This document shows positions 608-22,163 of a stretch of 64,000 bases of DNA, in pieces. The notes below the pieces were generated by a model that was not told the origin of the DNA, did no database searches, and saw nothing but the letters and a program-made list of their open reading frames with translations. The stretch is from Candidatus Uhrbacteria bacterium (GTDB taxonomy: Bacteria > Patescibacteriota > Patescibacteriia > JACQRZ01). The DNA lies in NCBI GenBank assembly GCA_016206155.1, contig JACQSC010000002.1, positions 143,473 through 207,472 on the forward strand, written 5' to 3'. The position numbers were made by a program, and so were the translations under genes. Each line of letters starts with the position of its first letter. Within the stretch, counting starts at the first letter, position 1.

Positions 608-3600
608 ATGAGTATGCTACATGAACCATATTCCTCATCACGAGGGAAGAGCGCGTATCTGTTGAGCGCGCTGTTTGTCGTCCTTGTCGGGACGGCTTTT
701 TTGATTGTGCCAAATGGCGCGTATGCCATAAGTGCGGCTCCAACCCTTCCCGCACCTGTTTCCGGCGCCCCCAAAGCCCTTCCAGCAGATCACCTTCTTG
801 ATGTATTGAATAAGCAGACGTCAACACGAGCCGCATCAGACGCCTCCGCGTTTTCCGGCACCGTCAAGATTGGCGGGGCGACACAAGCCGCTAAAGGCAT
901 ACTTGAAATTGGCGACGTTGGAGTTACGCACGATGCGTTTCTCCTCAGTGTCGCAAGTGGCATTGCATCTACGGGCGTGGGCGCTAACAATCGCAAGGCA
1001 TTGGTGCTCCAAGGTGGTCCGACGCCAAAAATATCGGCGTACGATTATGTCGCTCGAGCTGGAATGAAACTGACCATAAACCCCGACAACAGTGATGTTG
1101 TCATTGTTCCCGGTGGCGGCAGAGTAGGCATTGGGACCATACCAACCGCAAGCAGTGTCGGACTGCTTCAAATTGCGAAAACGAACGATCGTTATTCAGG
1201 CATTACATTTAATGATTCACGTTTGCGTTTGGGATCGGATCCGAATGGAAACGGTGCGATATTTGCTCAAGGTGGTGGTGCAATACTTGAAGTTGGCGCT
1301 CAAGGGTATATTTCGTTTACCACGGGAGCTATCGCTGGACACGCTACCGAAAAAATGCGTATTAATGAAGCCGGCAACGTCGGGATTGGGACGACAGAGC
1401 CAGGCGCCGCGTTAGAGGTTAAGCGCACCGTCGGCAATGGCAATGCTGAAATCTTTGCTAATTACAATGGAACAAATATTGGCAGGTTAAATGCAGCCTC
1501 AAATGGAAATGTTTATATGGGTGTATCTAGTGGGACTGGCGATTTAGCAATTGGCGTCAATGATAATGTTACCGCTTTGAATATTTTAGGCAAAGTCATC
1601 AAACGCGAAGATAACGTTGAAGTTGGCAGCATCGGCAACGTAGGCATCGGGATAGCGAAACCACTGGCAAAGCTTCATATTGAGGGACAGAGTACTTGGG
1701 GTGGGCTTACGATAAAAAATAAAAATAATTGGTACACCCATTTTAATTATCCTGACGACAAAAATTATATTCGCGGCACTACTATCATCGCCGATAACGA
1801 CGCCAACGTCAAAGTCGGCATCGGGACGTCAAGCCCTGGTTATAAACTGGAAGTAAATGGTGATATTCGTACTGGCGCTGGAGGTGACATTCGTTTAGGT
1901 CCCGCTAACTCTGGAACTGATGCGATATTATACTCCGACAACGGGGAATTAAGCTTTTACACCAATAAGGACAGGAGAATGGTCCTTGATACTTCAGGGA
2001 GACTTGGCATTGGGACGCCAGAACCAGAAAATAAGCTTGAAATTAGTGGAAATAATCAAGCCATTGCACTAACAACCGGTGGTGGAGAAAAGAATAATCT
2101 ATACGGAGGGAGATGGCGCGTACATGATACAGGTAATGGCGTGTATACAAGTTTTGATACAAAAAATGTCAATAGCTGGACAAATGATAGGCTTACCATT
2201 TTATCGAGCAATGGCAACGTCGGCATCGGGACTACCGCGCCCGTTGTCGCTGGAGGAGGTTTTACTGGAATAGATATACGTGGGACTAATGGTTCCAGTG
2301 TAGTACTCGGAAAATCAGGAGGATCACCCACTTTTCTTTACAGTGATAGTTCATATTTGAATTTTGAGACCCCGGGCGTTATTGCATTTCGTCCTGGAGG
2401 CTCAGAAAAGATGATAATAACAAGCGATGGCAAAGTCGGGATTGGGACGACAACGCCAGAATCAAAATTGCATATTCAAAATGTTCTTGAGGGAAATCCG
2501 GCAGACAAATCGCTCTTCTCAATCTATGATCTCCACAACCAGGGTAGAAACGGTCAATATTTCAGAATACTTGGAGGGACAAGGGGGATTAATCTTATAT
2601 CGAACTGGACTAGTTTGAGTTTCGGTGCGAGATATGATGCGGGAGGTGAATTTAAGCAGGATCTTACGATCGACACGAATGGCAAAGTCGGGATTGGGAC
2701 AACGAGTCCGAGAGTAAAACTTGAGGTTGCTGGCAGTGTTTCGACAGGACTGCTGGCTCCTAGAAATACGTACCTTGCGGATACATATCCGACATTTAGT
2801 GGATGGTCAAACACTCAAACTTCAACATGTGGGACATGGGAGATGCTTGGAGGATTTGAAATTCTTGGAGGAAGAGACTATGTAAGAAAAACAATACCAA
2901 ATTTGCCTGCCGGAGATTATATTGTTGAGTTTGATTTTTATAAAATTGATAGCTGGGATGGTGAACTGGCGATTTTTATGTGGAATGATGATCGTAAATG
3001 GAGCAGGAAGTATTATTCATCAGAGGGAACACAAATCTGTGGCCAGCAACATAACAATTGGAATGAGGATAAAGCTCATGTAGCAGTGGAAGTAAATCAA
3101 ACAGAGACTGGAAATGCTACATTACACTTTGGCGCAACGCTTGACAGTCATGCTGGGGATGAGTCATGGGGAGTGAATAATATAGTGGTGTATAAGAAAG
3201 GAAGCACGACAACTCTAGCCGCGATAGGAGATTTGAAAGTCAACGGCAACGTCGGGATTGGGACGAGTGATCCTTGGGCAAAGCTCCACATCGAGGGACG
3301 GGATAAGTGGGGTGGGCTTGCGATTGTGAATGCGAATACTCATGTCACCCATTTTAATTATCCTGACGGCAAAAATTATATTCGCGGCACTACTATCATC
3401 GCCGATGACGGCGGCAACGTCGGGATCGGCACTACGAGCCCGCATTCCGAACGAAAACTCCATGTCATGGGAACTGAAAGGATAGAAACGGCAGCCGATG
3501 CATGGAATTGGCTCGAAATTGCGCGAGGTGACGACACGATCTATTTTGGAAGCGACGTTACTAATCGCGGAATTTGGTCAAACGGTAGACGTGGCGTTGG

Positions 3601-5323: not shown

Positions 5324-5343
5324 TGAGTATATGAATTTGGCGT

Positions 5344-7362
5344 ATGAATATAAAGGTAAAATCAGGGGCTGTTTTTTTGGTTGCGGTTATTTTTGGACTG
5401 TTTGCATTTGGAACTCACGATGCAAATGCGGCATCCTATTGCATTTCGAATGACTGCAGACCCATTCCGCCGCCAAGTCAAAAAAAATATGTTGCACCAT
5501 ATAATGTTTTTGATACAGAAAACAAATACTGCGCTAATAAGGGAAAAAACTGCACCCCTGTTTGGCCGATTAGTTCATATAGGAAGTCGATTGATAGTGT
5601 AGGATATTGTACGAAATATAAATGTGTTTCTCCATGGCTGACAACTATAGAATTAGCGAACATTCAGAAGCAGACAGACGGATACAGCGCATGGCTTGAA
5701 GCAGTTTTTTTTACGCAAGGGGAAGTAACGAACATATCATGGGGTGTGGAGAAGGCGGGAGAGTCCGAAAAAAAGTGCGAGGAACGTCGCGTAAGTTTTA
5801 TCCGATCAAAAGATGTGCCATGCGGCTGGAGAAATTCTTCTACGAGTGTAGAAAGATTGGATAAAGATTCTCAAATGTATAGCGCCAAATTCAGAAATTA
5901 TTATTCGAAAGATCCCAAAAAATGTGATTTCCGCGTAACCGGACCACAAGGATTTCCATCTGAATTTGGCTTTTGTCTAACACAAACACTTCCGCCGCCG
6001 CCCGTAATAAATTATTTTACGATCAACGGTTTGCCGGATATTGCATTTGTGCCAAGAGGGAAACGATTTACAGTAGCATGGAATATTTTTGGGGCAACAT
6101 CAATATCTATCGAACCATTAACACTGGAGGGTTTAGCACAACAAGTTGATAATGCTGGAAATTTAGATGCAGGACATTGGATGAACAAGGCGCTACGCCA
6201 AAATTGGTTAGTTTCAACGAGCTGGAAAAATGATATTGCAAAACTTACAGGAGGAGGCGAATTCGGCTTATCGGCCCAAGCTCATACGAGGTATCGTTTG
6301 ACAGCCTCTAATCCTGGCGGTAAAACAGTAAAAGACGTTATTATTAATGTGCCAAGAAATAGTTATGGTAAATGGTTTCGAGCACTACCTCCGCAGGGGA
6401 TAAAATATGTACTTCCTGACGGCACAATTGACTATGCAGTTAAGTATCTGGAGGAGTATTACGTAACGGACACTAAGCGTTCGTATGGTGTTACAAATTA
6501 TGTTCCCCCTAATGCAAAGGATATTGGCCGCTTTGATTTTATGGATTCAAAAGAGTACGTTAAGGCACGTGACTCTGTCATACGCGGCGATAAAATCAAT
6601 GCTAGCGGCACTCGTATTAGTTCACAAGAAGAATTTGAAAAAATATTCGGACCACCACCATGTCTTGGCGGAAAAACATATGATATATCAGATACTGAAA
6701 CCAGCGGTTTGTTCGGTCCTCGTTATTTAACACCCACGTTCTGGTGTTCAAATGAAAATGATGGTATGTGTGTAGACTATGGACCCGATTGCGATGGAGT
6801 TGACTTACAAGCAGAATGGGATAAAGCTCCAAACGGTATAACTTTCAGGTGCACGTTGGCTGGATTAAAAGCACGGATAGCTACGTGTGTCGGTGAGCAT
6901 GAACGTAAGATTACCTATCTTACACAAGGAAGATATCATAGTAAAGCAGGAATATCGGTAATACAACAATTCTTTACTACACTTTTATTGGCACAATTAT
7001 TTGGAAGTAATGCCAGTAACGCTAGCGTACAGTCATCAAACCTTCCAGCTTCAATGTTAAATTTGCGGTGCCCAACCTGTGATATTGTTAAAAAAGAAGG
7101 TTTTAGTCCTCAGGGAAGCCTTATTCTTGGGCAGGGTGGCGTGCACCAAGATGCAAACGAATTAATGAAACGTATTGGAGAAAAGGAGGCGCGAGATGTA
7201 GGAGTACATTCAGTGAGAGGTTTAAATTTCAACGCAGTTGCTCTTAATAAGGAACCTTTGTCATATAATACGTCTGATTGGATTATGAGTGCGTGCGGAG
7301 CTGATACAGCATGCCAAGATTTTGCAGCGGCAAATGCATATAGGCCAAGGACTTCATGGTGA
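5344..7362 (+). CDS. secreted cysteine-rich protein (672 aa)
   Basis: N-terminal signal peptide MNIKVKSGAVFLVAVIFGLFAFGTHDANA followed by CISNDC. About 30 Cys in total, a poly-Pro linker, and an Ig-like middle section. Lies 21 nt after the preceding gene. Confidence 0.75.
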   Translation: MNIKVKSGAVFLVAVIFGLFAFGTHDANAASYCISNDCRPIPPPSQKKYVAPYNVFDTENKYCANKGKNCTPVWPISSYRKSIDSVGYCTKYKCVSPWLTTIELANIQKQTDGYSAWLEAVFFTQGEVTNISWGVEKAGESEKKCEERRVSFIRSKDVPCGWRNSSTSVERLDKDSQMYSAKFRNYYSKDPKKCDFRVTGPQGFPSEFGFCLTQTLPPPPVINYFTINGLPDIAFVPRGKRFTVAWNIFGATSISIEPLTLEGLAQQVDNAGNLDAGHWMNKALRQNWLVSTSWKNDIAKLTGGGEFGLSAQAHTRYRLTASNPGGKTVKDVIINVPRNSYGKWFRALPPQGIKYVLPDGTIDYAVKYLEEYYVTDTKRSYGVTNYVPPNAKDIGRFDFMDSKEYVKARDSVIRGDKINASGTRISSQEEFEKIFGPPPCLGGKTYDISDTETSGLFGPRYLTPTFWCSNENDGMCVDYGPDCDGVDLQAEWDKAPNGITFRCTLAGLKARIATCVGEHERKITYLTQGRYHSKAGISVIQQFFTTLLLAQLFGSNASNASVQSSNLPASMLNLRCPTCDIVKKEGFSPQGSLILGQGGVHQDANELMKRIGEKEARDVGVHSVRGLNFNAVALNKEPLSYNTSDWIMSACGADTACQDFAAANAYRPRTSW

Positions 7363-7392
7363 TAGTACAATAATATATTTATTTATTCATGT

Positions 7393-7890
7393 ATGATTCT
7401 ATCAGCTAGCGGTTTTATAAAAAAATTATTTAGAATACTCGTTTTACTTGGAATTTTTTGTATCGGATTTATTGGCGGGTATTATTATAATGCTAATGAT
7501 ACGAAGCGGATCGTTTCGGATATGCAAGAAAGAATTATAGACGGATCAGAGATCGCGAAAGTTCAAGGATATCAAGTGGAAGATTTTTATGGAAAAATAA
7601 AAGAATTAAATGGCAGTATTTTATGGGTAAGAAAGATCGTTGGACCAGACGCAGAAACGCAAGATATTATTGAAGTTGGCATTTCCCCTCGCACAGAGCT
7701 TATTGCAATGAAGTATCAAAATGTAAAAGATATTTCTAAACAATTCCTCAAAAGCGATGGGAACATTGGTGAACTAAAAGAGAACATATACGTACGGGTT
7801 TATTACCGCGTAACGGATGCGAATAGTACTGAAAAAGTCGAAGCCCAAACGATATATTATTCAGATAAAAATCCCTTTCTTTTCCAGTAA
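7393..7890 (+). CDS. small membrane-anchored protein (165 aa)
   Basis: N-terminal TM helix (ILVLLGIFCIGFIGGYYY). Tightly packed between neighbouring genes. Confidence 0.55.
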   Translation: MILSASGFIKKLFRILVLLGIFCIGFIGGYYYNANDTKRIVSDMQERIIDGSEIAKVQGYQVEDFYGKIKELNGSILWVRKIVGPDAETQDIIEVGISPRTELIAMKYQNVKDISKQFLKSDGNIGELKENIYVRVYYRVTDANSTEKVEAQTIYYSDKNPFLFQ

Positions 7891-7910
7891 AGCATTGTTT
7901 GCCGTTGTAT

Positions 7911-9683
7911 ATGACACGAGAACAAGAGGACGCGCGTGAAAAATATGCAAATCGTGGAGAATATAATACAGGGTATGTGCGTCAGAGACTGCGCGCGTAC
8001 ATAGCCTCACTTATTGTTTTTTTTTCTCAAGCGCAAGAAGTATCAGCTAAAATAGAATATCAGTTTGATAAACAACAAGGTTCATACGAACTTATTTATC
8101 AAGAAAATGAATCTGAGCGGCCTGTTCATTTTTTGCCAGTTCCAATTGCAGCGATCGGCGAACATGAAAACGGAGAGCGCATACGCCTTCCGTTTTTTGA
8201 TCGATTAAGAAAAATAGACATTACAGAAGGAGGGGTAAATTACTCAATAAAAGATCCGATTGCATTTCGTAATTTTATTGAAAATGAGCTTGACCGCTAT
8301 GTGCGAGCGCTTAACATACATGGAGATATTAAGCCGCAAGATCTTATACAGATAACGGCATTGATAACTAAAAATAATATGCTTCCAACGTCTGATGAGC
8401 GTCTTTTAGATAGCATTAATCATACTCCGTTGGATGAATTACTGATGGGCGTAAAACGCGGTGTTTGCCGTCATTACGCCGCCGCTTTTGAAACGGTGGC
8501 AGAAACTATCATTGAAATCACTCAATCAAAATATCTGCAGAACATTATTGTTGATGAAGTAGGTATGGCCGATGTAAATCATGCATGGAACGTTGTTTAC
8601 CATTTGACTCAAAATAACGGGGCGCATTTTATCAATATGGGATTTATTGATACGACAATCAAGCCACACGGGACATTTTCCGATCTGGGCGAAATCGAAA
8701 AAAGACAAGGCGATGTAAAAAATTTTAGAACCATCTATCTTAATCAATTATATTATGCAGTAAACCCTGAAGATAGAATTGCTGTTGTTCGAGATTCAGT
8801 GCTCTTGGCGGAAAACGAAAAAGAAAAGCTGCAGTACGTGACAGAGCTTGCCTTTACTTTTTTATCGCAAGTTAAAGAACTGTATCAACGGAAAGAAAAT
8901 GGCAAAGCGAGACAAGTATTTGAGGAGGCGGATAAGTATTTTAACAAATGGTACGAACAGTATTCAAAAGACGACACAGCGCTTCAGCATGTGCAGTTTA
9001 TTCGGACAATAATGATATCCATCTATTCTGTTGTGGCAGATAATACGCCTGATGCAGAAGGCAAGGTATCTGTTTACAAACGCGCATTGTTATGGAGCGA
9101 TATATTTAATTATGCTTTGGCGGATGCATATCTAAAAAGCGGCAATCAAGATGAGGCGCGGGCTATTTACGTTGGGATGCTTGAAAACATAAACGACAGC
9201 AGAGTGTTTGAAAAGGTATTTGGATTTTTCAATAAACTCAATGAAAGTGAAAATGTTGAAAAAACATTGAGCGCATACAAAAAATATCTTGAAAAAAGAC
9301 CAGTATCAGAGCAAGCATTCGGTTTTACTATACTTGCCGACGCATATGAGGTATTGGGAAATATTGAACAAAAACTATTATATTTAAAAAAAGCATTTTT
9401 CTGCGACGATGAACGAGCCGAAAGGAGGATGGAGAGAGGGGAACGATACGCTGATTCTGTTCTCGCGCAGGGAGATGCGATAACTGCCAGGAAAATATAT
9501 GATGAAATGTTTAAAATCTATAAAAAAGCAAAAAAGGACGGAAAGATAACCATTCCTTTCAAGCGTCAGATGCCCGGTAAAGGTTTTGTGGAAGTTTTTG
9601 CCGAGGAAGATGTATATAAAGAATATCTAAAGGAGAAACTGGGACAGCCACCGTTTTTACACATTAACGAAGCGGAGAACTAA
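7911..9683 (+). CDS. transglutaminase-like cysteine peptidase superfamily protein with alpha-helical (TPR-like) C-terminal region (paralog A)
   Basis: The track ORF starts at TTG 7899, and the first ATG is at 7911. The motif G-V-C-R-H-Y-A-A-A-F...H-A-W-N-V-V fits the transglutaminase-like core Cys...His arrangement. A signal-like segment (LRAYIASLIVFFSQAQEVSA) follows the start. The last 11 codons lie inside the 190-bp direct repeat described below. Confidence 0.65.
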   Translation: MTREQEDAREKYANRGEYNTGYVRQRLRAYIASLIVFFSQAQEVSAKIEYQFDKQQGSYELIYQENESERPVHFLPVPIAAIGEHENGERIRLPFFDRLRKIDITEGGVNYSIKDPIAFRNFIENELDRYVRALNIHGDIKPQDLIQITALITKNNMLPTSDERLLDSINHTPLDELLMGVKRGVCRHYAAAFETVAETIIEITQSKYLQNIIVDEVGMADVNHAWNVVYHLTQNNGAHFINMGFIDTTIKPHGTFSDLGEIEKRQGDVKNFRTIYLNQLYYAVNPEDRIAVVRDSVLLAENEKEKLQYVTELAFTFLSQVKELYQRKENGKARQVFEEADKYFNKWYEQYSKDDTALQHVQFIRTIMISIYSVVADNTPDAEGKVSVYKRALLWSDIFNYALADAYLKSGNQDEARAIYVGMLENINDSRVFEKVFGFFNKLNESENVEKTLSAYKKYLEKRPVSEQAFGFTILADAYEVLGNIEQKLLYLKKAFFCDDERAERRMERGERYADSVLAQGDAITARKIYDEMFKIYKKAKKDGKITIPFKRQMPGKGFVEVFAEEDVYKEYLKEKLGQPPFLHINEAEN

Positions 9684-9838
9684 TTCATATTATACACAGA
9701 GTTTTTGGGACATAACCGCATATTTTATTTTATCGCGCAAGAGATCTTATGAAGATCCGTATTTATATTTTCATTCCCATTTTTTTCCTGATTATAGTAA
9801 ATAGTGTAGAGGCAACAATCTGTATTAACGGTGATTGT
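9649..9838 (+). repeat. 190-bp direct repeat, copy 1 (about 99% identical to 17797..17986)
   Basis: Compared directly: caccgtttttacacattaacgaagcggagaactaattcat...atctgtattaacggtgattgt. Only 2 mismatches. Confidence 0.9.
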
Positions 9839-9868
9839 ATTAACGGTGTCAGGAATAGTTTTTATTGA
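9749..9868 (+). pseudogene. truncated 5' fragment (39 codons) of the PA14 secreted-protein gene
   Basis: MKIRIYIFIPIFFLIIVNSVEATICINGDC is identical to the N-terminus of the gene at 17897. It is then broken at an attaacggtg microhomology and stops at 9868. Confidence 0.75.
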
Positions 9869-9891
9869 ACGCAGATTGAGGTGGTAATTTT

Positions 9892-12800
9892 ATGTCATTC
9901 CGCTCAAAGCGAGGAATCCCTCGTTTCACCATATTACGAATAACGCCAAAGACCACGTTTGGTTTCCTGGCGTTGTTTTTTATTGGTATTGTCATCCTAT
10001 CTTTTTTTGTTATCGGCACGGCTGCGTCCGCGGCATCGTTTTGTTTTAATAGCAAAACTCCACAAGAGCAATGTTACCCCAACCTTAAATTCATTGGTAC
10101 GGTCGGGACACGACCGGTAAAGAACACGTATCTCAAAAAGCTAGAGCCGCCAAAAAGTGATTATTGGGGGGACACACAAAGGCATTGGCCAACCTCAAAC
10201 CTTGGGGACGCAACTAAAGATCGTTACTGCAATAACAGTAAATGGGGCGGGGGAACTACAAATCAAACGTGCATTTCCCGCGCCGGCTTGGAAACTGCAA
10301 TGCCGCGACTCGAGATTGTCAATCGTGGGGCAGATAGCTCCTTGGAAAATTTTCCGATGACCCTGCGCGTCCGAGGCCAGACGAAGAAGTACTGGTATTT
10401 TCCCGCCTATTACAGTATTCTTCCTTTTAAAAACCCATATACAGGTGAAGATAAGATATACCAGTATGATGTTCGCCCCGATCTCAGCTATAATTTTAAA
10501 GACCTGAAAGGACGCAAATGTCCCTGCGCTCCAGCGACACCACCAATACTTGATGATCAATGGGGACAAGGAGATGGTTATTATACTTACCACGGCGCTC
10601 CCTTTTTTAAAGAGGAAAAAAACGGTTTCCGGAAGTGCAATTTTTTGTCAGACAAACGCGACTACTATCCTGTAGATGTGTCCGGATGGAGTCACCGCAC
10701 ATGGGAGGAGACAGAAGATCCAAACGATTGTTATTTTGAAATTGCGAGTTCATCAAACGTACCCGGTGCAAATAAAAAATTTTATTATCGTGTCAAAAAA
10801 ATTCCCGTTATTCATCTTGAAGAAATTTTCCATAATGATACGAACGCTTTTCGTAATTATGAATATTCGGTAAAACAAGAGTCAGTGGCACGAAACGAGT
10901 ATGAAAGAGTAAAGACCGAAGAAATTGAAACGCCAAAACTGATAAACAAATGGCGTATTTATTATCGATATGACTATGGAAAGGAACGGATAGATTTAGA
11001 AACAGATAATTTTGGGAAGATCGTCGCGGCACGTTATGGCAATCAAACACCTGCTGAATGCCCTTGTTCTAAAAACGGAAAAATATGTATTGTTGGAGAT
11101 GTAGTTCCATGGGATGTCTATTCTTGTTATGAAAAATATAAAGATTGGAATAAACCATGGTCACAGTTAGCGGAAGAAGATAAAAGAAAAGATCGTAGAG
11201 TGCAATCAGCAAGGAAGAGCTACTTTAAAGCCTTCGGAGAATTGCAGAAAGATTCTGGAGAATTGTTAGAACAAAATAGAGTCGCAAATATCGCGAGAGA
11301 GAAGGGGGAATACTATCCATACAAAGTATATGAACCAGGGGTCGATCCGCCAGTAAATTCCTTTGATTTTATATCCACGTATGATGGTCAATTGCTACCA
11401 ACGGCAAAACAAGCATATAAGGTAAAAAATGAACAGGAGATCTGGAATAGAAATGCGTTGAACTTTGGCTACGGTGCCATAGTAGACTTAAGGTATACGC
11501 CTACGAATTGCAATATTAACGGCCATTTCGATAACATCGAAATTGGTTGGGACAATAAAGGCAGATATACGGATTATACGCTCACGATGCACGGAAATCC
11601 CAGAAATAAGATTAGTGATATAAAGAAGAGTGCAGAAGCTAGACGTATTCAGGCAGTCGCGGTCCCGACGCAGTTAAGTCTTAGTGGCGCAGAATGTAGA
11701 CTGCAAATGACCCCTCATCTTTTTGACTTTCCTGTGACATACTATTTTTCAACAGGGGACGTGGACATGCCACCGATAAGGATTCAATCATTTAAGGTTT
11801 CCGTCGAAGGAAAAACATCCAATCCGTTAGGGGAATGCAGCGCAGACAATTACACAAAATGTCTCCCGAAAGAAAAACTGCCAAGCGGCATGGAAAGTAG
11901 TGAGGCGTTTTTTACCGATGGTCGTACTCCTTTACGTTCGAAAAGAAGCGCACCAGCCAATACAACACTTGAGATTGAAACAAAAGAGAAAGAAACATTT
12001 GCCAATGTAAACTGGAATGTCACCGGAATGGATGATGTAAATGGAATTGTGGTTACGGTGGTGAAACATACACAAGACATAAATCATAGAGTTTACGATA
12101 TCGCCAACGTTGTTCAGGGGGGGACAGGAAGTTATACATCTCAACTTAAACCTGGAGACTGTAAAACAGAAAATAATAAACAAACATGTTCATGGAATAC
12201 CTATTCATTTTTTCTTACTGCGGTCAACGACCGCGCAGTAACAGATTCCGATAGATTAAAATATAATGAAGATAACATACAATACGTTTGGGCCGCTTCG
12301 CAAAAGATTGATGTAAAAGTAAAAAAAGAGGAATTGGCTATTCCTAAGTTTAGCGTTAAGAAATCCACTGGGAAGAAAGATTCCGCGGACTTAGAATGGA
12401 AAACAACAGGCGCGGAATTTATTAGGATAGAGATGCAGTATTCGTGGGGCAGGAAGAAGTCATATCCTCAGGGTGATAAGTGGGAAGACGGAACATGGAG
12501 CAAAGATACGAACGGCTCTGTGACGATTAATGGCATCGATACAAGAGATACGGTGTTTACCCTGTTCGCCCAAGACAACGAGGGCAATACCATCACATCA
12601 AACACAGAAAAGCTTGGTGATCCAAAGGAAGTGAACATCATCGATGTTGTTATTAATGGTCTGGGACTTCGAAATAGGCTTCTGAATAGATCACTCTATG
12701 AAATTATTACTGATTCTGATTGTCCCGACATTCCCATTGTCGGAGATATTTGTAGAGCGTTATCATTCAACAATATTTGGAGAACAGTTGGAGGTCTTGT

Positions 12801-14223: not shown

Positions 14224-14240
14224 ACAGAAAGGTTTTTATT

Positions 14241-15392
14241 ATGTTAAACGAACGCGCACATAAAGAGTTGCTACCGGCAGAGCGGTATGAAAAATTTATC
14301 CTCCCCCTTGCGTTTGTATGCGGTATGTCTCTGCCTCCTGAAGCTCGCGCTGCAGAGCCGCACGCACGCGAATCGTTGCAGCCGCTTACCGCAGAACAGC
14401 TTAAAGAAGTCCGTGAATTAGAAAAAACATCTCCGCTTGCAAAAGCAATTGATGCTGTGCCCGATTCCTTAATGAGAGAAGAAGGATATGATGGGGATAT
14501 TTTGTCACGCAAAGAGCGGGCGAAGTCCCAAATCCCGATCTTGTACGATGTAAGATGGAAGGTTGGTCCGGGTGAAAAGCCGTTGTCACAACGATATCCG
14601 CTTATTAATGTAGAGATATTTACTAACGGCGCTTTTATCTATTTCAATATTCCTGATGATGCGCGATTGCACAAGTTGGGCATCACGCGAGAGGAGATGG
14701 AAGTTGTTGCATCAGAAATTAAAGAGTCAACAACGATCCTGACCGATATGCCCGCGCACCGAGTTAGTCAGCCGAAAGATTCTAACCTTATTGTTTTTTT
14801 TAGTGACAATCCTCAAGAATCCTCAAGCATTAGAGACGGAAGGGCTGTTGGTCATACTCTGTATACAGTAGGTGTGCCAATCTCGTTTTTTCCATTGGGA
14901 ACTGTATACCCAATAGAATTTATTGAGCCTGGCAGTAATGGAGGTGTTTATATTCCACTGGAATCTTATAATGATAAAATTGAAAAAATGTTATCAGGTA
15001 AGAATCTTCATGAAAAAACTCGTGAATTAATATATGATATTACGCGGCACGCATACTTCAAGGAGTTGATTTATACAGCAGAGCATGAAATATGCCATTT
15101 TCTCGGTTACGGTCATAGCAACAATAAGAAGCATATTACTTATGGCGGGCCGGGCGTGGTGAGCTCGGGTACCGTCGTATCTCTCGGAAAAAGATCTGGA
15201 AAAAAACCAGTAATTCCCGAAGGCGCTTCTCTATATACTGATAAAATGGGAAATGATTATTATTTTTTATCTGCATGGGGTGACATTCGAAAATCTCCAG
15301 TCGTTGATCTGAATTTTTTTCTACGGATATTTGCGAAACAGAATAAGGAGCGAAAACTTATGGAAGAGCGCAATCAGCAGCATATGGAGTAA
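14241..15392 (+). CDS. putative zinc metallopeptidase with metzincin-type HEICHFLGYGH motif (383 aa)
   Basis: Matches the HExxHxxGxxH consensus exactly. RBS gaaagg lies 8 nt upstream. The gene starts 18 nt after the giant gene. The N-terminal region is hydrophobic. Confidence 0.6.
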   Translation: MLNERAHKELLPAERYEKFILPLAFVCGMSLPPEARAAEPHARESLQPLTAEQLKEVRELEKTSPLAKAIDAVPDSLMREEGYDGDILSRKERAKSQIPILYDVRWKVGPGEKPLSQRYPLINVEIFTNGAFIYFNIPDDARLHKLGITREEMEVVASEIKESTTILTDMPAHRVSQPKDSNLIVFFSDNPQESSSIRDGRAVGHTLYTVGVPISFFPLGTVYPIEFIEPGSNGGVYIPLESYNDKIEKMLSGKNLHEKTRELIYDITRHAYFKELIYTAEHEICHFLGYGHSNNKKHITYGGPGVVSSGTVVSLGKRSGKKPVIPEGASLYTDKMGNDYYFLSAWGDIRKSPVVDLNFFLRIFAKQNKERKLMEERNQQHME

Positions 15393-15697
15393 TAACGCAC
15401 GAGAAAAAGGATGCGGGAAAGCTGTGCAAAAAACGGTGTCAGGAATGGTTTATTGCAAAAACTCCTACTTATAGGCATAGATAGGAGCATGGGTAGGGGG
15501 ATAGGAATCATTTTATGTGTGGTATGATTTTCGTATGCTTCGACCACACAGAACAGATGTCGGAGATGTCGTGTATCACTTATCAATCTTGCGAACGCTC
15601 GATTGGGCAAAAACGTGACCATGGGCCGTTTTTGAAATCAAATGTCTTGACAACGATACCGTATACCTGTATTGTATAGTTACATACAATTATCACT

Positions 15698-16021
15698 ATG
15701 AAGCTTGGATTTAGCGCTATATCAATTGAGGGGTTTGATTGGGATACGGGGAACAGTGAAAAGAATTGGATAAAGCATCACGTCAGAAAGAATGAATGCG
15801 AGGAGGTTTTTTTCAATAAGCCGTTAAGAATTTTTGATGATCAGGTATATTCCAAGACTGAGAAACGTTTTGGGGCCCTCGGAAGAACGGATAGAGGAAG
15901 ACGGCTCACTATTATATTCACTATACGAAAAAAAATGATTCGGGTCATTTCTGCACGAGAACAAGGTCGGCACGATCGAAAAATTTATGAAGCAGTCGAG
16001 CAAAACTATTACCAATCATAA
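15698..16021 (+). CDS. brnT: BrnT-family (DUF497) toxin
   Basis: FDWDTGNSEKNWIKHHV...EVFF...RTDRGRRLTIIFTIRKKMIRVISAREQGRHDRKIY matches the BrnT pattern (FEWD..K...N..KHGV, R.ISAR). It lies immediately upstream of a small RHH gene. Confidence 0.7.
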   Translation: MKLGFSAISIEGFDWDTGNSEKNWIKHHVRKNECEEVFFNKPLRIFDDQVYSKTEKRFGALGRTDRGRRLTIIFTIRKKMIRVISAREQGRHDRKIYEAVEQNYYQS

Positions 16022-16036
16022 TCAGGACGCACCTTT

Positions 16037-16327
16037 ATGAAAGAAGGGACAAGGAGAAAAATCAAAATGCTTCCATCGTTCCGCAGTGAGGATGAGGAGC
16101 GGGAGTATTGGGATAGCCATGAATTGAGCGATGTGTTCGACGTAACACATGGCACTGATATGACATTTCCCAACCTCAGGCCATCAACGAAAAACATTAC
16201 GATCCGCGTGCCCGAATCCATGCTTTTTGCCCTGAAGGGTATTGCACGAAAAAAAGATGTGCCATATCAGTCACTTGCAAAAGTGTATCTTGACGAAAAA
16301 ATTCATGAGGAGTATTTCGTGAAATGA
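16037..16327 (+). CDS. brnA: BrnA-family antitoxin (ribbon-helix-helix)
   Basis: PNLRPSTKNITIRVPESMLFALKGIARKKDVPYQSLAKVYLDEKI matches the BrnA consensus (FPNLKPSTK.ISIRLP...DVPYQSLIK). Alternative start at M11 (16067). Confidence 0.65.
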   Translation: MKEGTRRKIKMLPSFRSEDEEREYWDSHELSDVFDVTHGTDMTFPNLRPSTKNITIRVPESMLFALKGIARKKDVPYQSLAKVYLDEKIHEEYFVK

Positions 16328-16513
16328 AATAACTTCGCTTAGTGTCACGGAAAATTGGGGAAAATTGGTGTCAGAAAATTGGTGTCAAGTCCGCATTTTC
16401 GCATTTGGAAAATGGATTCACTACGACAAGTTAAACCATATACTTTCCAGCCGCTTTTTACCGCGTCGAAGTAACGTTTTCTGCCCGCCACTTTTATCAT
16501 GAGGCAAAAAAGG

Positions 16514-16541
16514 TTGACACAATTTTTAACCATGGTAGAAT
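16514..16541 (+). promoter_or_regulatory. sigma70-like promoter (TTGACA-16 nt-TAGAAT) for the ATPase gene
   Basis: Sequence ttgacacaatttttaaccatggtagaat. The same element is present in the decayed copy at about 22266. Confidence 0.5.
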
Positions 16542-16569
16542 ATTGTAGTAATACATTTTTTGTCAACTT

Positions 16570-17751
16570 ATGCGTATTGACCGCTATATTCATGACGTCA
16601 TCCTTGCGGATCTTCATGAGCCAACCATGGTGTTTCTTGCAGGTCCCCGACAAGTCGGCAAGACGACACTCGCGCACATTCTCGGAGAGAAAGACTTCAC
16701 TGCTTATCAGTATTTGAACTGGGATGACAGCGACGACCAGAAGCGTATTCTCGCCCGTGATTTTGAAGCTGATGCGCGCTTACTTGTCTTTGATGAACTG
16801 CATAAATACCGCAACTGGAAAAATTATCTTAAGGGACTATACGATAAACAAAAAACTCGATTCGCCATCATCGCAACAGGCAGTGCGCGTCTTGATATGT
16901 ATCGTCGCGGCGGCGATTCGTTGATGGGGCGTTATCATCATCTTCGGCTTCATCCGTTTTCACTTGCGGAACTTGTTGGGCAGAGGTTTTCCAGCAGTCC
17001 ATTTTCAGAGCTGATGTTTCCCGTTGAAACGAGTACCATTGCCCAAGCGGCGCGCGACCTGCTCCGCTTTGGAGGTTTCCCAAAGCCATTTTTGCAAAAG
17101 AGCGATACTGCGTTGAGACGTTTTCACAACGAGCGCTTTGATCGCTTAATCAAAGAAGATATTCGTGATACCGAACGGGTGCACGACCTTTCGTTACTCC
17201 AAGAGCTCGCTGCGCTTCTTCCGGAACGGGCAAGCTGCCGCCTCTCATTAAACAATCTGCGAGAGGATCTTGGAGTTGCGCATAAGACCGTGAGCCATTG
17301 GATGGATGTGTTTGAGAGATTTTACTATCATTTTCGTATTACGCCATTCGCGATCAAAACAGCCGCCTCGCTTCGCAAGGAACCAAAACTCTATTTATGG
17401 GACTGGTCGGTGGTGGAGGATGCTGGAAATCGTTTTGAGAATATGATCGCGTCACATCTTCTTAAGTTTGTTCATTTTTTATGCGACACGCAAGGATACA
17501 AAGCGATGGTGCACTATATGCGGGATCGTGATGGACGCGAAGTTGATTTTTTGATAACGATTAATCAGAAGCCATGGTTTGCTGTTGAGGTAAAATATTC
17601 AGACACCACTATCTCGCCACATCTTTCCTATTATATGCAACGCGCTCGGATTCCATTCGGATATCAGGTTGTCGCAACGCCAGGGATTCATCGAATAAGA
17701 GATTCAATTCATGTGATAAGCGCCAGTCGTTTTCTTGCGGGGCTTGTGTAA
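16570..17751 (+). CDS. COG1373-type ATPase (AAA domain plus DUF4143-like C-terminal domain)
   Basis: Walker A GPRQVGKTT and Walker B LLVFDELH. Overall architecture of the widespread 'ATPase, AAA_14/DUF4143' family. Has its own promoter and terminator. Confidence 0.8.
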   Translation: MRIDRYIHDVILADLHEPTMVFLAGPRQVGKTTLAHILGEKDFTAYQYLNWDDSDDQKRILARDFEADARLLVFDELHKYRNWKNYLKGLYDKQKTRFAIIATGSARLDMYRRGGDSLMGRYHHLRLHPFSLAELVGQRFSSSPFSELMFPVETSTIAQAARDLLRFGGFPKPFLQKSDTALRRFHNERFDRLIKEDIRDTERVHDLSLLQELAALLPERASCRLSLNNLREDLGVAHKTVSHWMDVFERFYYHFRITPFAIKTAASLRKEPKLYLWDWSVVEDAGNRFENMIASHLLKFVHFLCDTQGYKAMVHYMRDRDGREVDFLITINQKPWFAVEVKYSDTTISPHLSYYMQRARIPFGYQVVATPGIHRIRDSIHVISASRFLAGLV

Positions 17752-17772
17752 GGAGGGAAAACGGTGAAGGAG

Positions 17773-17796
17773 AAACGGTGACTGTCACCGTTTTTA
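17773..17796 (+). terminator. rho-independent terminator (aaacggtgactgtcaccgttttt)
   Basis: Perfect 8-bp stem with loop ctgt followed by a T-run. Lies 22 nt after the ATPase stop. Confidence 0.65.
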
Positions 17797-17986
17797 CACC
17801 GTTTTTACACATTAACGAAGCGGAGAACTAATTCATATCATACACAGAGTTTCTGGGACATAACCGCATATTTTATTTTATCGCGCAAGAGATCTTATGA
17901 AGATCCGTATTTATATTTTCATTCCCATTTTTTTCCTGATTATAGTAAATAGTGTAGAGGCAACAATCTGTATTAACGGTGATTGT
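17797..17986 (+). repeat. 190-bp direct repeat, copy 2
   Basis: See 9649..9838. Here it spans the terminator-proximal spacer, the RBS and the first 30 codons of the PA14 gene. Confidence 0.9.
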
Positions 17987-20599
17987 CTTGATCAGCAACA
18001 ACTTCATGAGTTTGACAAGATTCAGAATTATTTAGATTCTTCCGCTATCAATCGTTATAGCCAAAATGGAGAACGATTTATAAGGTGGCCGAAGGGAAGT
18101 TACAGAGAGACCGGAAAGAGCGCTCTTTGCATAAATGGGAATTGTATTACCGAGTGGCCACCTCGTTTGAAAAATTTCGAATTAACTCTCGAAGGCGAGG
18201 ATTCAATGCAACGATATGTGGGCAGGTATTTTGTATTCGGACGAGTAGCAGCTCAGGATTATTATCGAGCTGGAGTTGTTTTGAAATACAATAACCAGTA
18301 CAAGCGATGGCTTGATCCTTCAACCGCTTCCCCGCCAGAAATTATTTATACAACGCCAGCATTTTCAGATACGGGGTATTCATTTGAGACATATTTAGGG
18401 CAATCCGTGGTTGGAAAAAGAAACTTTAATTATTTAAAATCGTCAAGGTATACCGATTTGAGCAATTTTGCTTGTAACAAGGTATCTACAAAGACAGAAT
18501 ATATTTACAATGATAAAGCACGATATATAAAATTTGAGGGCGGCAGAGACGAAGCAAGCTATCGCGGTTCGCTCACCTGTAAAATTCGTCACAAAAGTCC
18601 TATTGGCCTAGAGGCTGTTTATCCATTTGCTGTTGGAAAATTTGAATTGCCAGCTCCGAAAATACTTCAATTCAACGGAATACAGACTTCAGATGGAAAA
18701 CTTCAATTTTTTATCTTTGGTGACGGATACCAATTGACCGCTAAATATGTTGCAGAACTTGATTCGTCGGGACAGGAAAAGAAAGTCATTTTTGATTTGT
18801 TGAATGATCCGTTTGATTTGATGCATATCATTCCTTATCCCGCCGTAGAAACATCATATCGTTTTGTTATAAAAAATTCAGCTGGTGTCGTAACAGCGGA
18901 ATTTTCAAAGAGGCCAAATTATTACGGTCCATGGAGACCGGGCCCTCGATGGGCGACCGACACGCTTGATGATGGGCTAAGGGAGTGGTATAGTTCAGTT
19001 CGCTCATATCAAAGCGTTATAGATGAATTGGCTAATCCACCAAAAGAGAGGAAAGCAAGGGAGGATTCTTCGGAGCGCAACACAAGACAAAAAACAAAAA
19101 TTCAAAGCATTATCAGCAATGTAGGCAGTGGAATCACGTATTACGGACAAAATATTCAAGACATGTCGTATATTCATGATCCAGAGGTTGCTTTCGAGGA
19201 TACGTACACAGATCACCTTGTAGACTCCCTTCCTCCTTGCAGTCCAAAACCAAACCCGCTCTTAATTCAAGAGGCCTACCCAGATCTTTCAGAATTTTAT
19301 CCGGCATATCGCTGTTTTGGTAAAGCAAAACATTGTCTTGACGTGCTGCCGGATTGTCATATATCAGCTGTTAATATAACTGATATATTTAATTTAGATC
19401 AAATACATGCGAAAGATCTTCAAAATGAAGCGTTCATAGTAGAGTCTTGTGGTTTTTGGAGCTCCAATGAAAACAAATTAAAGCATCCTGATCTTGGACG
19501 ACGATGGTTATGGGACCCGAAGCGAAAATATCTTGTAAAAGATAATCCAGTTCAGACGAAAGTACGAGAAGTGCGTTGTGAAGATGGCGTGGTAGATACA
19601 CAGTATACGTATTCAAGCGTTCGCGGACCTAAAGTTAAATACGAATGCGGCCTTATGGATTCACGGTGCAGGGAGGGCGGGGTACGATCGCGCATGGAAA
19701 TCGCGAGAGAGTTAAAATCGCGTTCCATAGAAATTCCGACAGAATCGCCGACTTCGATTAAACAACAAGGAAAGCCAATCAATGCTGAGTCAACAGGCAG
19801 TGAGTGGGTTGATTGCTCGAAAACCCCTGAAGGGTGTAATAAATTTGTTCCAGATGATATAAATGACAATGCTGGCCATCTTTATCATTCTGAAGGGCAT
19901 TCAAATGATGGCATTCGTGATTTTCAGCGTCGCCTGAATGAGGCGCGCAGGGATGGTTCTGGAACCCATCCGATTGATCTTTATAATCCCCAAACACAAA
20001 AACAATATGTTGAATCAAATACAGGAGTTGTCACAAAGGAAGAGGCGGAATCTATCTATGGTAGTACAACTTCTGAGCAGCGTGAAGAAATCATTGACAA
20101 GGCAAAAGAGAAAAGAACCGATAGCGCGTTTAGTGTTGCGTCAATTATAGGCCAGAAGAAATGCAAGACTGACTTTCCATACGGCATCTTCCATGTGTGT
20201 TATTTTTCCGGGATAAACGCACCGATGACTGACGCGTCGGTCATTTTACAACAGCCTGAATGGAACGTGCCAGGTCCCATAAAAACAGGAGTGTTGATGG
20301 ATAATAGCTGGGGGACGGGGGTTATCAGTGCGACCAAGAGAACAGATGACATATCTGGCGTCTGGCGCGGACAATTTTTGTTTGAAAAGGGAACTTATTC
20401 ATTTTTCACGGTTGCAGATGATGGTGTTGAGGTTTGGTTTGACGATACCATGATTATTCAAAATTGGGCTGATCACGGAGAGACAGAAAACCGATCATCC
20501 CCTATTTTTCTTGATGGAGGATTTCATACCATTATGGTTCGATGGTACGAAAAAAACGGAGGGACTCGCTTGTTACTGCGAACCGAATTTATTCAGTAA
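17897..20599 (+). CDS. secreted protein with C-terminal PA14-like domain (900 aa)
   Basis: Signal peptide MKIRIYIFIPIFFLIIVNSVEA followed by a CINGDC / CINGNC motif. The C-terminal segment GVWRGQFLFEKGTYSFFTVADDGVEVWFDDTMIIQNWADHGETENRSSPIFLDGGFHTIMVRWYEKNGGTRLLL matches the PA14 pattern (Y.F...DDG..L.ID......NW.DHG.......L.AG.H.I.V.Y.E.GG.A.L.L). Confidence 0.8.
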   Translation: MKIRIYIFIPIFFLIIVNSVEATICINGDCLDQQQLHEFDKIQNYLDSSAINRYSQNGERFIRWPKGSYRETGKSALCINGNCITEWPPRLKNFELTLEGEDSMQRYVGRYFVFGRVAAQDYYRAGVVLKYNNQYKRWLDPSTASPPEIIYTTPAFSDTGYSFETYLGQSVVGKRNFNYLKSSRYTDLSNFACNKVSTKTEYIYNDKARYIKFEGGRDEASYRGSLTCKIRHKSPIGLEAVYPFAVGKFELPAPKILQFNGIQTSDGKLQFFIFGDGYQLTAKYVAELDSSGQEKKVIFDLLNDPFDLMHIIPYPAVETSYRFVIKNSAGVVTAEFSKRPNYYGPWRPGPRWATDTLDDGLREWYSSVRSYQSVIDELANPPKERKAREDSSERNTRQKTKIQSIISNVGSGITYYGQNIQDMSYIHDPEVAFEDTYTDHLVDSLPPCSPKPNPLLIQEAYPDLSEFYPAYRCFGKAKHCLDVLPDCHISAVNITDIFNLDQIHAKDLQNEAFIVESCGFWSSNENKLKHPDLGRRWLWDPKRKYLVKDNPVQTKVREVRCEDGVVDTQYTYSSVRGPKVKYECGLMDSRCREGGVRSRMEIARELKSRSIEIPTESPTSIKQQGKPINAESTGSEWVDCSKTPEGCNKFVPDDINDNAGHLYHSEGHSNDGIRDFQRRLNEARRDGSGTHPIDLYNPQTQKQYVESNTGVVTKEEAESIYGSTTSEQREEIIDKAKEKRTDSAFSVASIIGQKKCKTDFPYGIFHVCYFSGINAPMTDASVILQQPEWNVPGPIKTGVLMDNSWGTGVISATKRTDDISGVWRGQFLFEKGTYSFFTVADDGVEVWFDDTMIIQNWADHGETENRSSPIFLDGGFHTIMVRWYEKNGGTRLLLRTEFIQ

Positions 20600-20606
20600 G
20601 TCGTCT

Positions 20607-22163
20607 ATGAGCGAAAAAACCAGAAAGTTTGAAAAAGCTGTGGTAGCTCTTGGTGCGGTAGGAGCGCTTCAATTTATCCAGCAGGATGCTCGCGCGGAAA
20701 GCGTTCGCCATCCAGTATCACAACAATTTGAATTAACCTACCAAGAGCGCGAAGGCGGAGAGCCGATCATTATTCGATTCCAATCTCCGAAAAATTTCGG
20801 ACATGAACAAGCTGACGAAACAGTAGACGATCATCCACTAATAAGAAAAATGAAAGAGACTGATGTATTTATTCATCATGTGAACGGATCTATCCTAGAC
20901 AGGAAACAATTTAGAGCATCAATCATTGAACGCATTCCCTCGATAAAGCAGCGATTGCGCATACCGGAACAAAATATTTCCCCACGAGAAAGTATTAAGC
21001 TCGGGGAATATATCATAAAGCAAGACCTTAGGTATGATTATTCTAGTGTTTATCCGTCCGACAGTGACGCGAGGAAGCGATCGGAAATTATTGACATCAC
21101 GCCAGTAGATCAGCTTCGCGGGAAGGGAGTTGTATGTCGCCATGCCGCGGTATATTTTTCGAAAACGCTTGAAGAGATTATTCAATCTGAAGCTCAACAC
21201 TCTCCCCAGGTACGCGGAATGTCAGTTGATGAACTTAGTGGTGATGTTAGACACGCGCTGAATAGTGTTCATAGAATATATCGGAAGGATGGTAAAACAA
21301 TTTTTGAGATAACGCCAATAGATATAACTCCTTCTGAGCGTAAAGAATTTCGGGTTGATACAGAACAGACAGTAACGAAACCCGCGGAAAGGATTTTATC
21401 GTTTCTTCGTCTCCATATTTTTCCTTTCGTGTCGTCAGAGTATATCTTCGCTAGTTTACGTTCTTTTTTTTCCGAAGTCATGCCACATGATGAAAAACTG
21501 TATGCCGTCAATGAGGCATATGAAATCTACCGCGATTCAGTGGAAGCGTTGAAAAAAAACGCACATCATGAGATACCATCACTTTTTTCTTCGGCAGTTC
21601 TATTTTTTGATGATATTCACGCTGGAGCTGTTCAAAAAAAGGACTGGGGTATAGTGTTGGCGGTTCAGGACGTTCTATATCAAATATTTCGTTCGCATGC
21701 AAATGATTTTTCAGATGTCAATAAAGCTCTTGCAATATACAAGGATAGGATTGCGCAAACAGCATCATCGGAGAATATGCGACAGATTCACGCATACTCT
21801 TGCTATGGAGACGCGCTACGAAGGTATGGACGGCCTGGCGAAAGTCTTGATGCTATGGAACGCGCATATATAATTAGCAGAATGGTGGAGTATTGGAAAT
21901 ATCATGTTGAAATAGGTATGGCATACGCTGATTTTTTAGGTGATGCCGGAATGAGAAAAGAAGCCCTTGCAATTTTGCGTGAGCTTTTTGAGTATTTTCA
22001 AAAGCTCCCGAAAAATGGAGCACTTGCAATCGGTTATCATAATGAGATCTATGAGAACGGTGAATATAAGAAGATTGAACCATTTGCGTCGCGCGAGAAT
22101 TTTGAACGATATGTTGAGCACAAAAAGAGGGGGTGGGAATCCAAAGCAAAATCACGAGATTAA
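20607..22163 (+). CDS. transglutaminase-like cysteine peptidase superfamily protein (paralog B), secreted
   Basis: The track ORF 20511 overlaps the upstream gene by 89 nt. The start was moved to M33 (atg 20607), 8 nt after the upstream stop. Signal-like N-terminus KTRKFEKAVVALGAVGALQFIQQDARA. Core G-K-G-V-V-C-R-H-A-A-V-Y-F is a paralog of CRHYAAAF in 7911..9683. Helical C-terminal half. Confidence 0.65.
   Translation: MSEKTRKFEKAVVALGAVGALQFIQQDARAESVRHPVSQQFELTYQEREGGEPIIIRFQSPKNFGHEQADETVDDHPLIRKMKETDVFIHHVNGSILDRKQFRASIIERIPSIKQRLRIPEQNISPRESIKLGEYIIKQDLRYDYSSVYPSDSDARKRSEIIDITPVDQLRGKGVVCRHAAVYFSKTLEEIIQSEAQHSPQVRGMSVDELSGDVRHALNSVHRIYRKDGKTIFEITPIDITPSERKEFRVDTEQTVTKPAERILSFLRLHIFPFVSSEYIFASLRSFFSEVMPHDEKLYAVNEAYEIYRDSVEALKKNAHHEIPSLFSSAVLFFDDIHAGAVQKKDWGIVLAVQDVLYQIFRSHANDFSDVNKALAIYKDRIAQTASSENMRQIHAYSCYGDALRRYGRPGESLDAMERAYIISRMVEYWKYHVEIGMAYADFLGDAGMRKEALAILRELFEYFQKLPKNGALAIGYHNEIYENGEYKKIEPFASRENFERYVEHKKRGWESKAKSRD

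Follow-up and report, generated by a model that had tools for sequence, protein, structure and literature searches.

Cysteine-rich secreted proteins paired with transglutaminase-fold enzymes in a candidate surface attachment locus of Patescibacteria

The present analysis deals with a stretch of 64,000 nucleotides, hereafter called the window, from a metagenome-assembled genome of Candidatus Uhrbacteria (candidate phyla radiation, CPR, or Patescibacteria). The + strand holds every gene between positions 536 and 22163. This block contains two modules, in each of which a Cys-rich secreted protein, called here the cargo, is followed by an exported enzyme having a transglutaminase fold and a conserved Cys-His-Asp triad; a giant tail-fibre-like surface protein is encoded ahead of the first module. 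The enzyme and cargo pairing recurs in seven other metagenomic loci. With a somewhat better than even chance, in our judgement, the block is a cell-surface attachment module, the secreted parts of which would be processed extracytoplasmically by the enzyme, and neither a metabolic nor a phage locus. The genes concerned are the following (ORF, open reading frame).

536..5323, + strand: giant tail-fibre-like surface protein, 1595 aa (start at TTG 536, the ATG at 608 being likelier)
5344..7362, + strand: CysA, Cys-rich secreted protein of type A, 672 aa, 20 Cys (ORF)
7393..7890, + strand: small membrane protein (165 aa, single-pass), encoded between CysA and enzyme A
7911..9683, + strand: enzyme A, transglutaminase-fold, 590 aa (ATG inside the ORF 7899..9683)
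17897..20599, + strand: CysB, Cys-rich secreted protein of type B, 900 aa, 18 Cys (ORF), with a PA14 domain
20607..22163, + strand: enzyme B, transglutaminase-fold, 518 aa, paralog of enzyme A (ATG inside the ORF 20511..22163)

The genes are co-directional in both modules. The intergenic gaps are of 20 nt (fibre to CysA), 30 nt (CysA to membrane protein), 20 nt (membrane protein to enzyme A) and 7 nt (CysB to enzyme B). Enzyme A (590 aa) and CysB (900 aa) are HY623_01365 and HY623_01395 at NCBI, both named «hypothetical protein». A preliminary description of this DNA had proposed a duplicated module made of a secreted protein and a transglutaminase-like protein. The four ORFs and the motifs that it quoted are all found where it placed them, on the + strand, and the pair of secreted protein and enzyme stands; the unit is nevertheless larger, as it also comprises the upstream fibre and, in type-A modules, the small membrane protein.

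The enzymes and their family

By their sequences, enzymes A and B are clear paralogs, as had been proposed: BLASTP aligns their N-terminal halves over 207 aa with E 3e-13 and their C-terminal parts with E 1e-6. They carry the motifs GVCRHYAAAF and GVVCRHAAVYF, respectively. Their triads are localized as follows.

Enzyme A, + strand: Cys186 (nt 8466-8468), His224 (nt 8580-8582), Asp247 (nt 8649-8651)
Enzyme B, + strand: Cys177 (nt 21135-21137), His216 (nt 21252-21254), Asp239 (nt 21321-21323)

Enzyme A is composed of a signal-peptide-like N-terminus, a small beta subdomain, a catalytic core (aa ~100-262) and a helical solenoid resembling tetratricopeptide repeats (TPR; aa ~286-577). The C-terminal half of enzyme B is helical. 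The signal-like N-termini and helical C-terminal halves ascribed earlier to both proteins are thus retrieved. The N-termini are short and signal-peptide-like, with AxA-type sites (RQRLR-AYIASLIVFFS-QAQEVSA before K, and KFEK-AVVALGAVGALQFI-QQDARA before E). The C-terminal halves match TPR profiles and are TPR-like in an AlphaFold run with four sequences, with a predicted local distance difference test (pLDDT) of 80-95; in the same run the N-terminal half has a pLDDT of only ~30.

An exhaustive search of 1.84 billion representatives with a hidden Markov model (HMM) of the N-terminal part gives a family of 77 clusters, 44 of them at E <= 1e-10. The members with a taxon label are all Patescibacteria and the named ones are all «hypothetical protein». 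Distant members have a clear transmembrane helix ahead of the core. The family signature is GVNY...PxDxLL...GVCRHYA...NHAWN...F(I/V)DxT. Cys, His and Asp are invariant in a 4-sequence alignment. In an alignment of 78 sequences Cys186 is conserved in 78/78, His224 in 77/78 and Asp247 in 69/78 (plus Glu in 8). The Cys and His singled out in the preliminary description do align with transglutaminase-like catalytic residues in the family register given below, and the fold matches go in the same direction.

The core model obtained by AlphaFold from a core alignment of 45 sequences has a pLDDT of 92.1 and a predicted template modelling score (pTM) of 0.88. A helix covers model residues 87-105 and is opened by the Cys (model residue 87). 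It is accompanied by the strands 125-136 and 139-147, with the His at the strand start and the Asp (model residue 148) beside the strand end. As modelled, this order of Cys/helix and His/Asp strand is the papain/transglutaminase arrangement. The comparison of the model with PDB by Foldseek gives first a LapG-containing complex (4u65_E; prob 0.99, E 0.015, TM 0.44), then 4xz7, annotated «TGase» (prob 0.98). The putative protease 3kd4 and the PNGase 2f4o are also among the top five, and rank 4 is an unrelated COMMD-like protein (prob 0.10).

On the side of sequence families, the Peptidase_C93 / DUF920 model of LapG-type proteins (BTLCP) matches neither the window proteins nor the 78 family members, and PDB sequence-profile searches with full-length and core alignments give TPR proteins or noise only. 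DUF553 is not reached at E 0.01 by either window enzyme nor by 75 of the 78 scanned members. Two members of the weak tail of the family, P0067 and P0078, do pass the cutoff of Pfam DUF553, «Transglutaminase-like domain» (28.8 and 32.4 bits, cutoff 20.5). They align with the family profile with Prob 98% and E 1e-13, the motifs being in register (GVCRHYAA with GVCHDYAA, NHAWN with NHAWN, IDTT with IDLTW). Profile searches for a transglutaminase core (Transglut_core PF01841, DUF553 PF04473) therefore give no direct curated match for the window enzymes; DUF553 constitutes an indirect bridge through P0067 and P0078.

The fold assignment is well supported because the triad conservation, the core model, the Foldseek matches and the DUF553 bridge all go in the same direction. 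This leads to the conclusion that the enzymes belong to a divergent, uncurated branch of the transglutaminase-like superfamily. The family is absent from Pfam and NCBIfam. With its signature, its confidently modelled core and its domain architecture, it can now be defined in a usable way.

Secreted partners, other genes of the block and recurrence of the locus

CysA and CysB have classical signal peptides with strong hydrophobic N-termini. In CysA the signal peptide is followed by an N-terminal disulfide module (CISNDC aa 33-38, WPISSYR aa 74-80, CTKYKC aa 89-94), an Ig-like region (aa ~215-336), CVDYGPDC at aa 476 and a C-terminal CPTC...GQGG region. CysA has no match in Pfam and NCBIfam; its aa 215-336 give a weak match to a PHROG «virion structural protein» (E 2.7e-5). 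In CysB the order is signal peptide, N-terminal disulfide module (CINGDC aa 25-30, WPKGSYR aa 64-70, CINGNC aa 78-83), CLDVLPDC at aa 480 and a C-terminal PA14 domain (aa 796-892). The PA14 domain announced in the preliminary description is unambiguous (PF07691, 45.4 bits vs. a cutoff of 24, E 9e-12).

The two cargo proteins are barely similar in a pairwise comparison (E 0.01). When homologues are added, the first ~96 aa of the two types align with hhalign at Prob 96% and E 2.4e-9, and HMMs of the mature N-termini (signal peptide removed) retrieve the opposite type in both directions, with E 3e-8 to 1e-4. The same HMMs have no further match among 904 ORFs (window and fetched loci). Short hairpin-like C-x4-6-C units, grouped around WP-x-(S/G)-S-(Y/F)-R, make up the shared module of ~80 residues. 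The module did not show a conserved Gln/Lys acceptor motif. Further collinear motifs are NxYGxW (aa ~340), PPC (aa ~440) and C-x-D-x-x-P-x-C (aa 476 and 480); homology of the middle regions is not demonstrable, the collinear alignment being not significant (P 0.005). The C-termini differ, i.e., PA14 in type B and a CPxC...GQGG region in type A. CysA and CysB appear to share the N-terminal disulfide module only. The idea of a duplicated module accordingly holds for the enzyme and for this N-terminal part, not for the whole cargo protein. Word-indexed homologue searches with the cargo proteins give almost nothing, CysB being an orphan there.

The giant protein has a signal peptide, a hydrophobic N-terminus (aa 37-67) and many GNVGIGT beta-helix repeats. 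It matches PHROG tail fibers (phrog_9942, E 5e-57; phrog_18345, E 3e-42). A profile of its C-terminal region matches solved tips and stalks of the MAT fibres of Bdellovibrio (Bd2133; 8ond, E 2.9e-6), the match being carried by the GxxGIGT repeat. The last ~250 aa of the giant protein are kept in every locus with a visible upstream gene, and occupy 4577..5320 in the window, 790-1503 in L001, 1370-2017 in L007, 430-1017 in L012 and 380-1024 in L013. This domain scores 24.0 bits with the Pfam Peptidase_G2 intramolecular-chaperone (IMC) autoproteolytic cleavage domain, just below the cutoff of 25; an S74 SDxxxK chaperone domain was not detected in the giant protein. The fibre may thus self-cleave a chaperone domain, like phage tailspikes. 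The 165-aa membrane protein has an N-terminal hydrophobic helix and no significant family match in Pfam, NCBIfam and PHROGs.

The conservation of the pairing in related genomes was a check named in the preliminary description, and the pairing of enzyme and cargo is found again in seven metagenomic loci. A separate related-locus search with eight sequences gave only two genome loci and three metagenome loci, two of these being the same contigs. The gene contents of the seven loci are given below.

L001: fibre C-terminus, 731-aa type-A cargo (45% identity to CysA), 160-aa membrane protein, 600-aa enzyme
L002: membrane protein (160 aa), enzyme
L007: fibre, 956-aa PA14 cargo (35% identity to CysB), 583-aa enzyme, DUF4143 ATPase, ribosomal genes
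L008: type-A cargo C-terminus, enzyme
L009: PA14 C-terminus, enzyme
L012: fibre, 322-aa protein with 26 Cys and the cargo N-terminal module, two small genes on the opposite strand, enzyme
L013: fibre, 637-aa type-A cargo, 180-aa membrane protein, enzyme

The small membrane protein has an equivalent position in L001, L002 and L013. The enzymes of the paired loci have 20-38% mutual identity in the core. Because this identity is so low, the linkage of cargo and enzyme has outlived much divergence. Only a part of the enzyme family is paired with a cargo.

The remaining genes of the block, and the locus which follows it, are listed here.

9892..14223, + strand: 1443-aa secreted protein, the third of the large Cys-rich ones (46 Cys; signal peptide)
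14241..15392, + strand: 383-aa protein with HExxHxxGxxH, a metzincin-type zinc motif
15698..16327, + strand: BrnT/BrnA toxin-antitoxin pair (Pfam)
16570..17751, + strand: AAA_14/DUF4143 ATPase (Pfam E 1e-26)
from 22565: type IV pilus locus (T2SSE, T2SSF, N_methyl pilins, PilM)

The 1443-aa protein has a strong signal sequence and a Gly-rich hydrophobic region (aa ~909-1085, 12616..13146), its sole internal transmembrane-like segment, with a weak match to a phage tape-measure PHROG (E 8e-4). Its membership of the module is uncertain. The N-terminus looks like that of the cargo (FCFNSKTPQEQC...HWPTS); homology to the cargo module was rejected, as neither leave-one-out HMM nor hhalign recovers it. 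An upstream fragment in the locus L010 was considered as a homologue of the 1443-aa protein and found to be without support. The 383-aa gene starts 17 nt after the 1443-aa gene. Its product contains HEICHFLGYGH (aa 282-292, nt 15084-15116) and reaches Pfam Peptidase_M10 at E 0.018 only. An 88-aa remnant of its C-terminus directly follows the enzyme gene in L001 (6061-6327). The 1443-aa and 383-aa genes may form a third pair of large secreted protein and protease-like protein.

The BrnT toxin (Pfam E 1e-20) and the CopG/BrnA antitoxin (E 5e-24) are intact and lie between the two modules. The AAA_14/DUF4143 ATPase is found beside the module in three loci, on the 5' side of the second module in the window and on the 3' side in L001 (6441-7364) and L007 (6807-7982); it is probably not part of the module. 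In the pilus locus, a 593-aa protein (25965..27746) has a pilin-like hydrophobic N-terminus and about seven repeats of the type GW(A/V)VGxxGxIxxWxGxxW. It has no match in Pfam, resembles a pseudopilin with a fused beta-propeller and is possibly located at the pilus tip.

The preliminary description had mentioned the proximity of the pilus locus. This proximity is real in the window. It is not conserved in L007, where the module runs into ribosomal and housekeeping genes; the comparison rests on this locus, the other cargo loci showing too little downstream sequence. The GC content is 0.38-0.44 over the block (~5-22 kb) vs. ~0.50 in the remaining ~40 kb of the window. In the whole window no tRNA gene was found that could be an island border, and the signal in promoter and terminator scans is not above the shuffled expectation.

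Proposed function and competing explanations

The proposed unit comprises: (1) a Sec-exported tail-fibre-like giant protein; (2) a disulfide-rich secreted protein, having the shared Cys module of ~80 aa and a variable C-terminal domain; (3) a small membrane protein in the modules of type A; (4) a Cys-His-Asp enzyme, likewise exported, to which a TPR-like solenoid is attached. Once outside, the enzyme would bind the co-encoded surface protein by its TPR-like part, and the catalytic Cys would form a thioester intermediate on it; we infer from the gene order that the substrate is this neighbour. Water would most likely resolve the thioester, leading to a site-specific proteolytic maturation or release comparable to that of LapA by LapG. 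Less likely, an amine would resolve it, and an isopeptide cross-link would result. The outcome would be an adhesin or a fibre for attachment, plausibly used by an episymbiont-type bacterium for binding other cells, i.e., for host attachment. Hydrolysis is favoured over transamidation because the best fold match is a protease and because most prokaryotic members of the superfamily are considered to be proteases, a view reportedly put forward by Makarova et al. in 1999 (summarised in PMC10318531).

Several points weigh against an attachment module processed by its own enzyme: (i) in Pfam, NCBIfam and PHROGs both enzymes match TPR only, and no transglutaminase model (in Pfam, none at E <= 0.1); (ii) synteny is the sole tie between enzyme and cargo that the sequences offer; (iii) the present data fit hydrolysis and transamidation alike; (iv) a single series of sequencing runs (SRR22387xxx-SRR22388xxx, Hainich groundwater) is the source of most of the supporting loci, possibly one habitat and one lineage; (v) the neighbour-joining tree of the enzymes tracks the cargo type only partly; (vi) in L003 (Doudnabacteria) and L004 (other Patescibacteria) the enzyme lies among housekeeping genes, without cargo, and has a cytoplasmic N-terminus of ~230 aa and a transmembrane helix ahead of the core; (vii) the members P0006 and P0010 (L005 1..10784, L011 1..8382) come directly after MreB in glycosyltransferase/Wzy_C/DUF4012 clusters; (viii) the member P0028 (1199 aa; L017 7085..14257) has an ABC ATPase on one side and two MacB_PCD/FtsX permeases on the other. 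The ancestral role of the enzyme may thus be a general envelope function.

The last points are in line with a different explanation, which is possible though rather doubtful. The enzyme would be a general envelope enzyme, e.g., a hydrolase or endoisopeptidase of peptidoglycan peptides or a regulator of surface polysaccharides. Its position beside fibre and adhesin genes would only reflect the local wall remodelling that large surface structures require, and the Cys-rich proteins would not be substrates. The cargo-less members encoded after MreB (L005, L006, L011) and the fact that unpaired members nest among paired ones in the tree are in its favour, as is the L017 member. The arrangement of an ABC ATPase with MacB/FtsX permeases resembles the FtsEX-type control of extracytoplasmic hydrolases. 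On the contrary, no domain for binding the cell wall (LysM, SH3, PG_binding) was detected in the scanned family members, the domain that they carry instead is of the TPR-like, typically protein-binding sort, and the tight coupling to the cargo (7-20 nt) is kept in seven loci at 20-38% enzyme identity. HvyA, a transglutaminase-like C-H-D protein whose gene lies in a capsule locus, is a precedent for an envelope enzyme of this type (PMC4241560).

It is unlikely that the enzyme is a true cross-linker, i.e., a transglutaminase or a sortase-like transpeptidase that would link its Cys-rich, lectin-type partner covalently with the fibre or with the wall. The chemistry of the fold, a Cys thioester that is resolved by an amine, is compatible with it, and a fibre and a separate «tip» protein are always co-encoded. 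Nevertheless, the protease LapG is the best structural match, most prokaryotic transglutaminase-like proteins are said to be proteases, and the cargo module lacks an identified Gln/Lys acceptor motif. In favour of a cross-linker, the second-best fold match (4xz7, prob 0.98) is annotated as a TGase. Moreover, DUF553, the nearest Pfam family, is described as transferring peptidyl glutamine to amines (PMC10318531). A related proposal, quite unlikely in our opinion, is that the N-terminal disulfide module of the cargo would be a sorting or recognition tag and the TPR enzyme a dedicated «sortase-like» partner, which would recognise the tag after Sec export and attach exchangeable lectin-type tips (PA14 or other C-terminal domains) covalently to the tail-fibre-like stalk or to the wall. 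If true, Patescibacteria would possess in this locus a modular host-recognition organ of their own, and proteins would be anchored there by a new class of enzyme.

Finally, the low-GC block could be read as a degraded prophage or phage tail module whose enzyme and Cys-rich proteins are virion or tail-associated, in view of the tail-fibre PHROG match of the giant protein, the weak PHROG matches of CysA and of the 1443-aa protein, the GC difference, the nearby BrnT/BrnA pair and DUF4143 ATPase, and a Y1 transposase in L010. This reading is very improbable and was rejected: a Sec signal peptide is present on all the large proteins; fibre-type matches apart, the 8-10 scanned proteins of the block (536..22163; Pfam, NCBIfam, PHROGs) include no capsid, portal, terminase, baseplate or sheath family; the enzyme has no relative in 50,697 phage genomes nor, by the motif scan, in IMG/VR contigs; the BFVD fold search gives one unnamed match (E 0.015); and the L007 module sits among housekeeping genes.

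The attachment module remains the preferred explanation. CPR/Patescibacteria are thought to live attached to other cells. To our knowledge, their attachment molecules, type IV pili aside, are largely unknown. The locus described here is a concrete and recurring attachment candidate, made of a tail-fibre-like fibre, disulfide-rich proteins with lectin-type ends and a dedicated exported Cys-His-Asp enzyme.

Comparison with known systems

The closest known system is that of LapG, an exported transglutaminase-like C-H-D protease; its target is the giant adhesin LapA, encoded beside it, from which it cuts off a retention module at the N-terminus (PMC3032545). The likeness to LapG/LapA (Pseudomonas fluorescens, Legionella) concerns the exported transglutaminase-like fold, the Cys-His-Asp triad and a gene beside a very large surface adhesin; a LapG-containing complex (4u65_E) is also the top structural match of the core model. 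The enzymes differ from LapG by the absence of a Peptidase_C93 sequence match, the long TPR-like tail and the extra N-terminal beta subdomain. The cargo differs from LapA in that it is Sec-exported and disulfide-rich, the host is a CPR bacterium and the locus has no LapE-type outer-membrane pore. The partners of the Lap system, i.e., a type I secretion system (T1SS), a T1SS RTX adhesin with a di-alanine cleavage module and the c-di-GMP receptor LapD, were not found among the scanned neighbours.

In the original division of the transglutaminase-like superfamily by Makarova and Koonin in 1999, DUF553 (PF04473) is family 3 (PMC10318531). No other curated sequence family comes nearer, the three catalytic motifs being in register through P0067 and P0078. 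The enzymes described here differ from it by their own signature, architecture and phyletic range (Patescibacteria). HvyA of Caulobacter, a BTLCP of a capsule locus, is a Sec-exported transglutaminase-like C-H-D protein, the catalytic residues of which are needed for the envelope phenotype (PMC4241560). The spacing of its triad (C192/H226/D241) is close to that of enzyme A (C186/H224/D247), and the unpaired members of the enzyme family are likewise found in polysaccharide clusters. However, HvyA belongs to another sequence family and has neither a TPR tail nor an adhesin or fibre partner.

CPR-C4 (7OB6) is a small vasohibin-like cysteine protease of CPR with a Cys-His-Leu(carbonyl) triad, reported to be unrelated to its gene neighbours (PMC9108980). 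An identity of the enzyme with CPR-C4 was rejected, as the triads differ and CPR-C4 is outside the top 50 fold matches; moreover, neither a TPR domain nor an export signal is described for it in that paper.

As for the fibre, MAT fibres are phage-fibre-like adhesins on the surface of the predatory Bdellovibrio (PMC10769870). The giant protein resembles MAT and phage tail fibres by its signal peptide, its GxxGIGT-type beta-helix repeat and a C-terminal domain that may be chaperone-like. It differs by an undetected S74 and a borderline Peptidase_G2 IMC, and neither a Cys-rich partner nor a transglutaminase-fold enzyme is reported for MAT loci. As for the cargo, large Cys-rich extracellular proteins are known in CPR genomes, and a role in attachment has been proposed for them (PMC4736985).

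The preliminary description had regarded the arrangement as undescribed. As far as the searched libraries and literature show, this is fair for the enzyme family and for the operon; the principle itself is known from LapG-LapA. The locus combines known principles: (i) an exported transglutaminase-fold enzyme beside an adhesin, (ii) phage-fibre-like adhesins and (iii) Cys-rich surface proteins of CPR. If the enzyme does process or anchor its neighbours, the LapG-type control of adhesins would extend to a very different envelope and secretion route.

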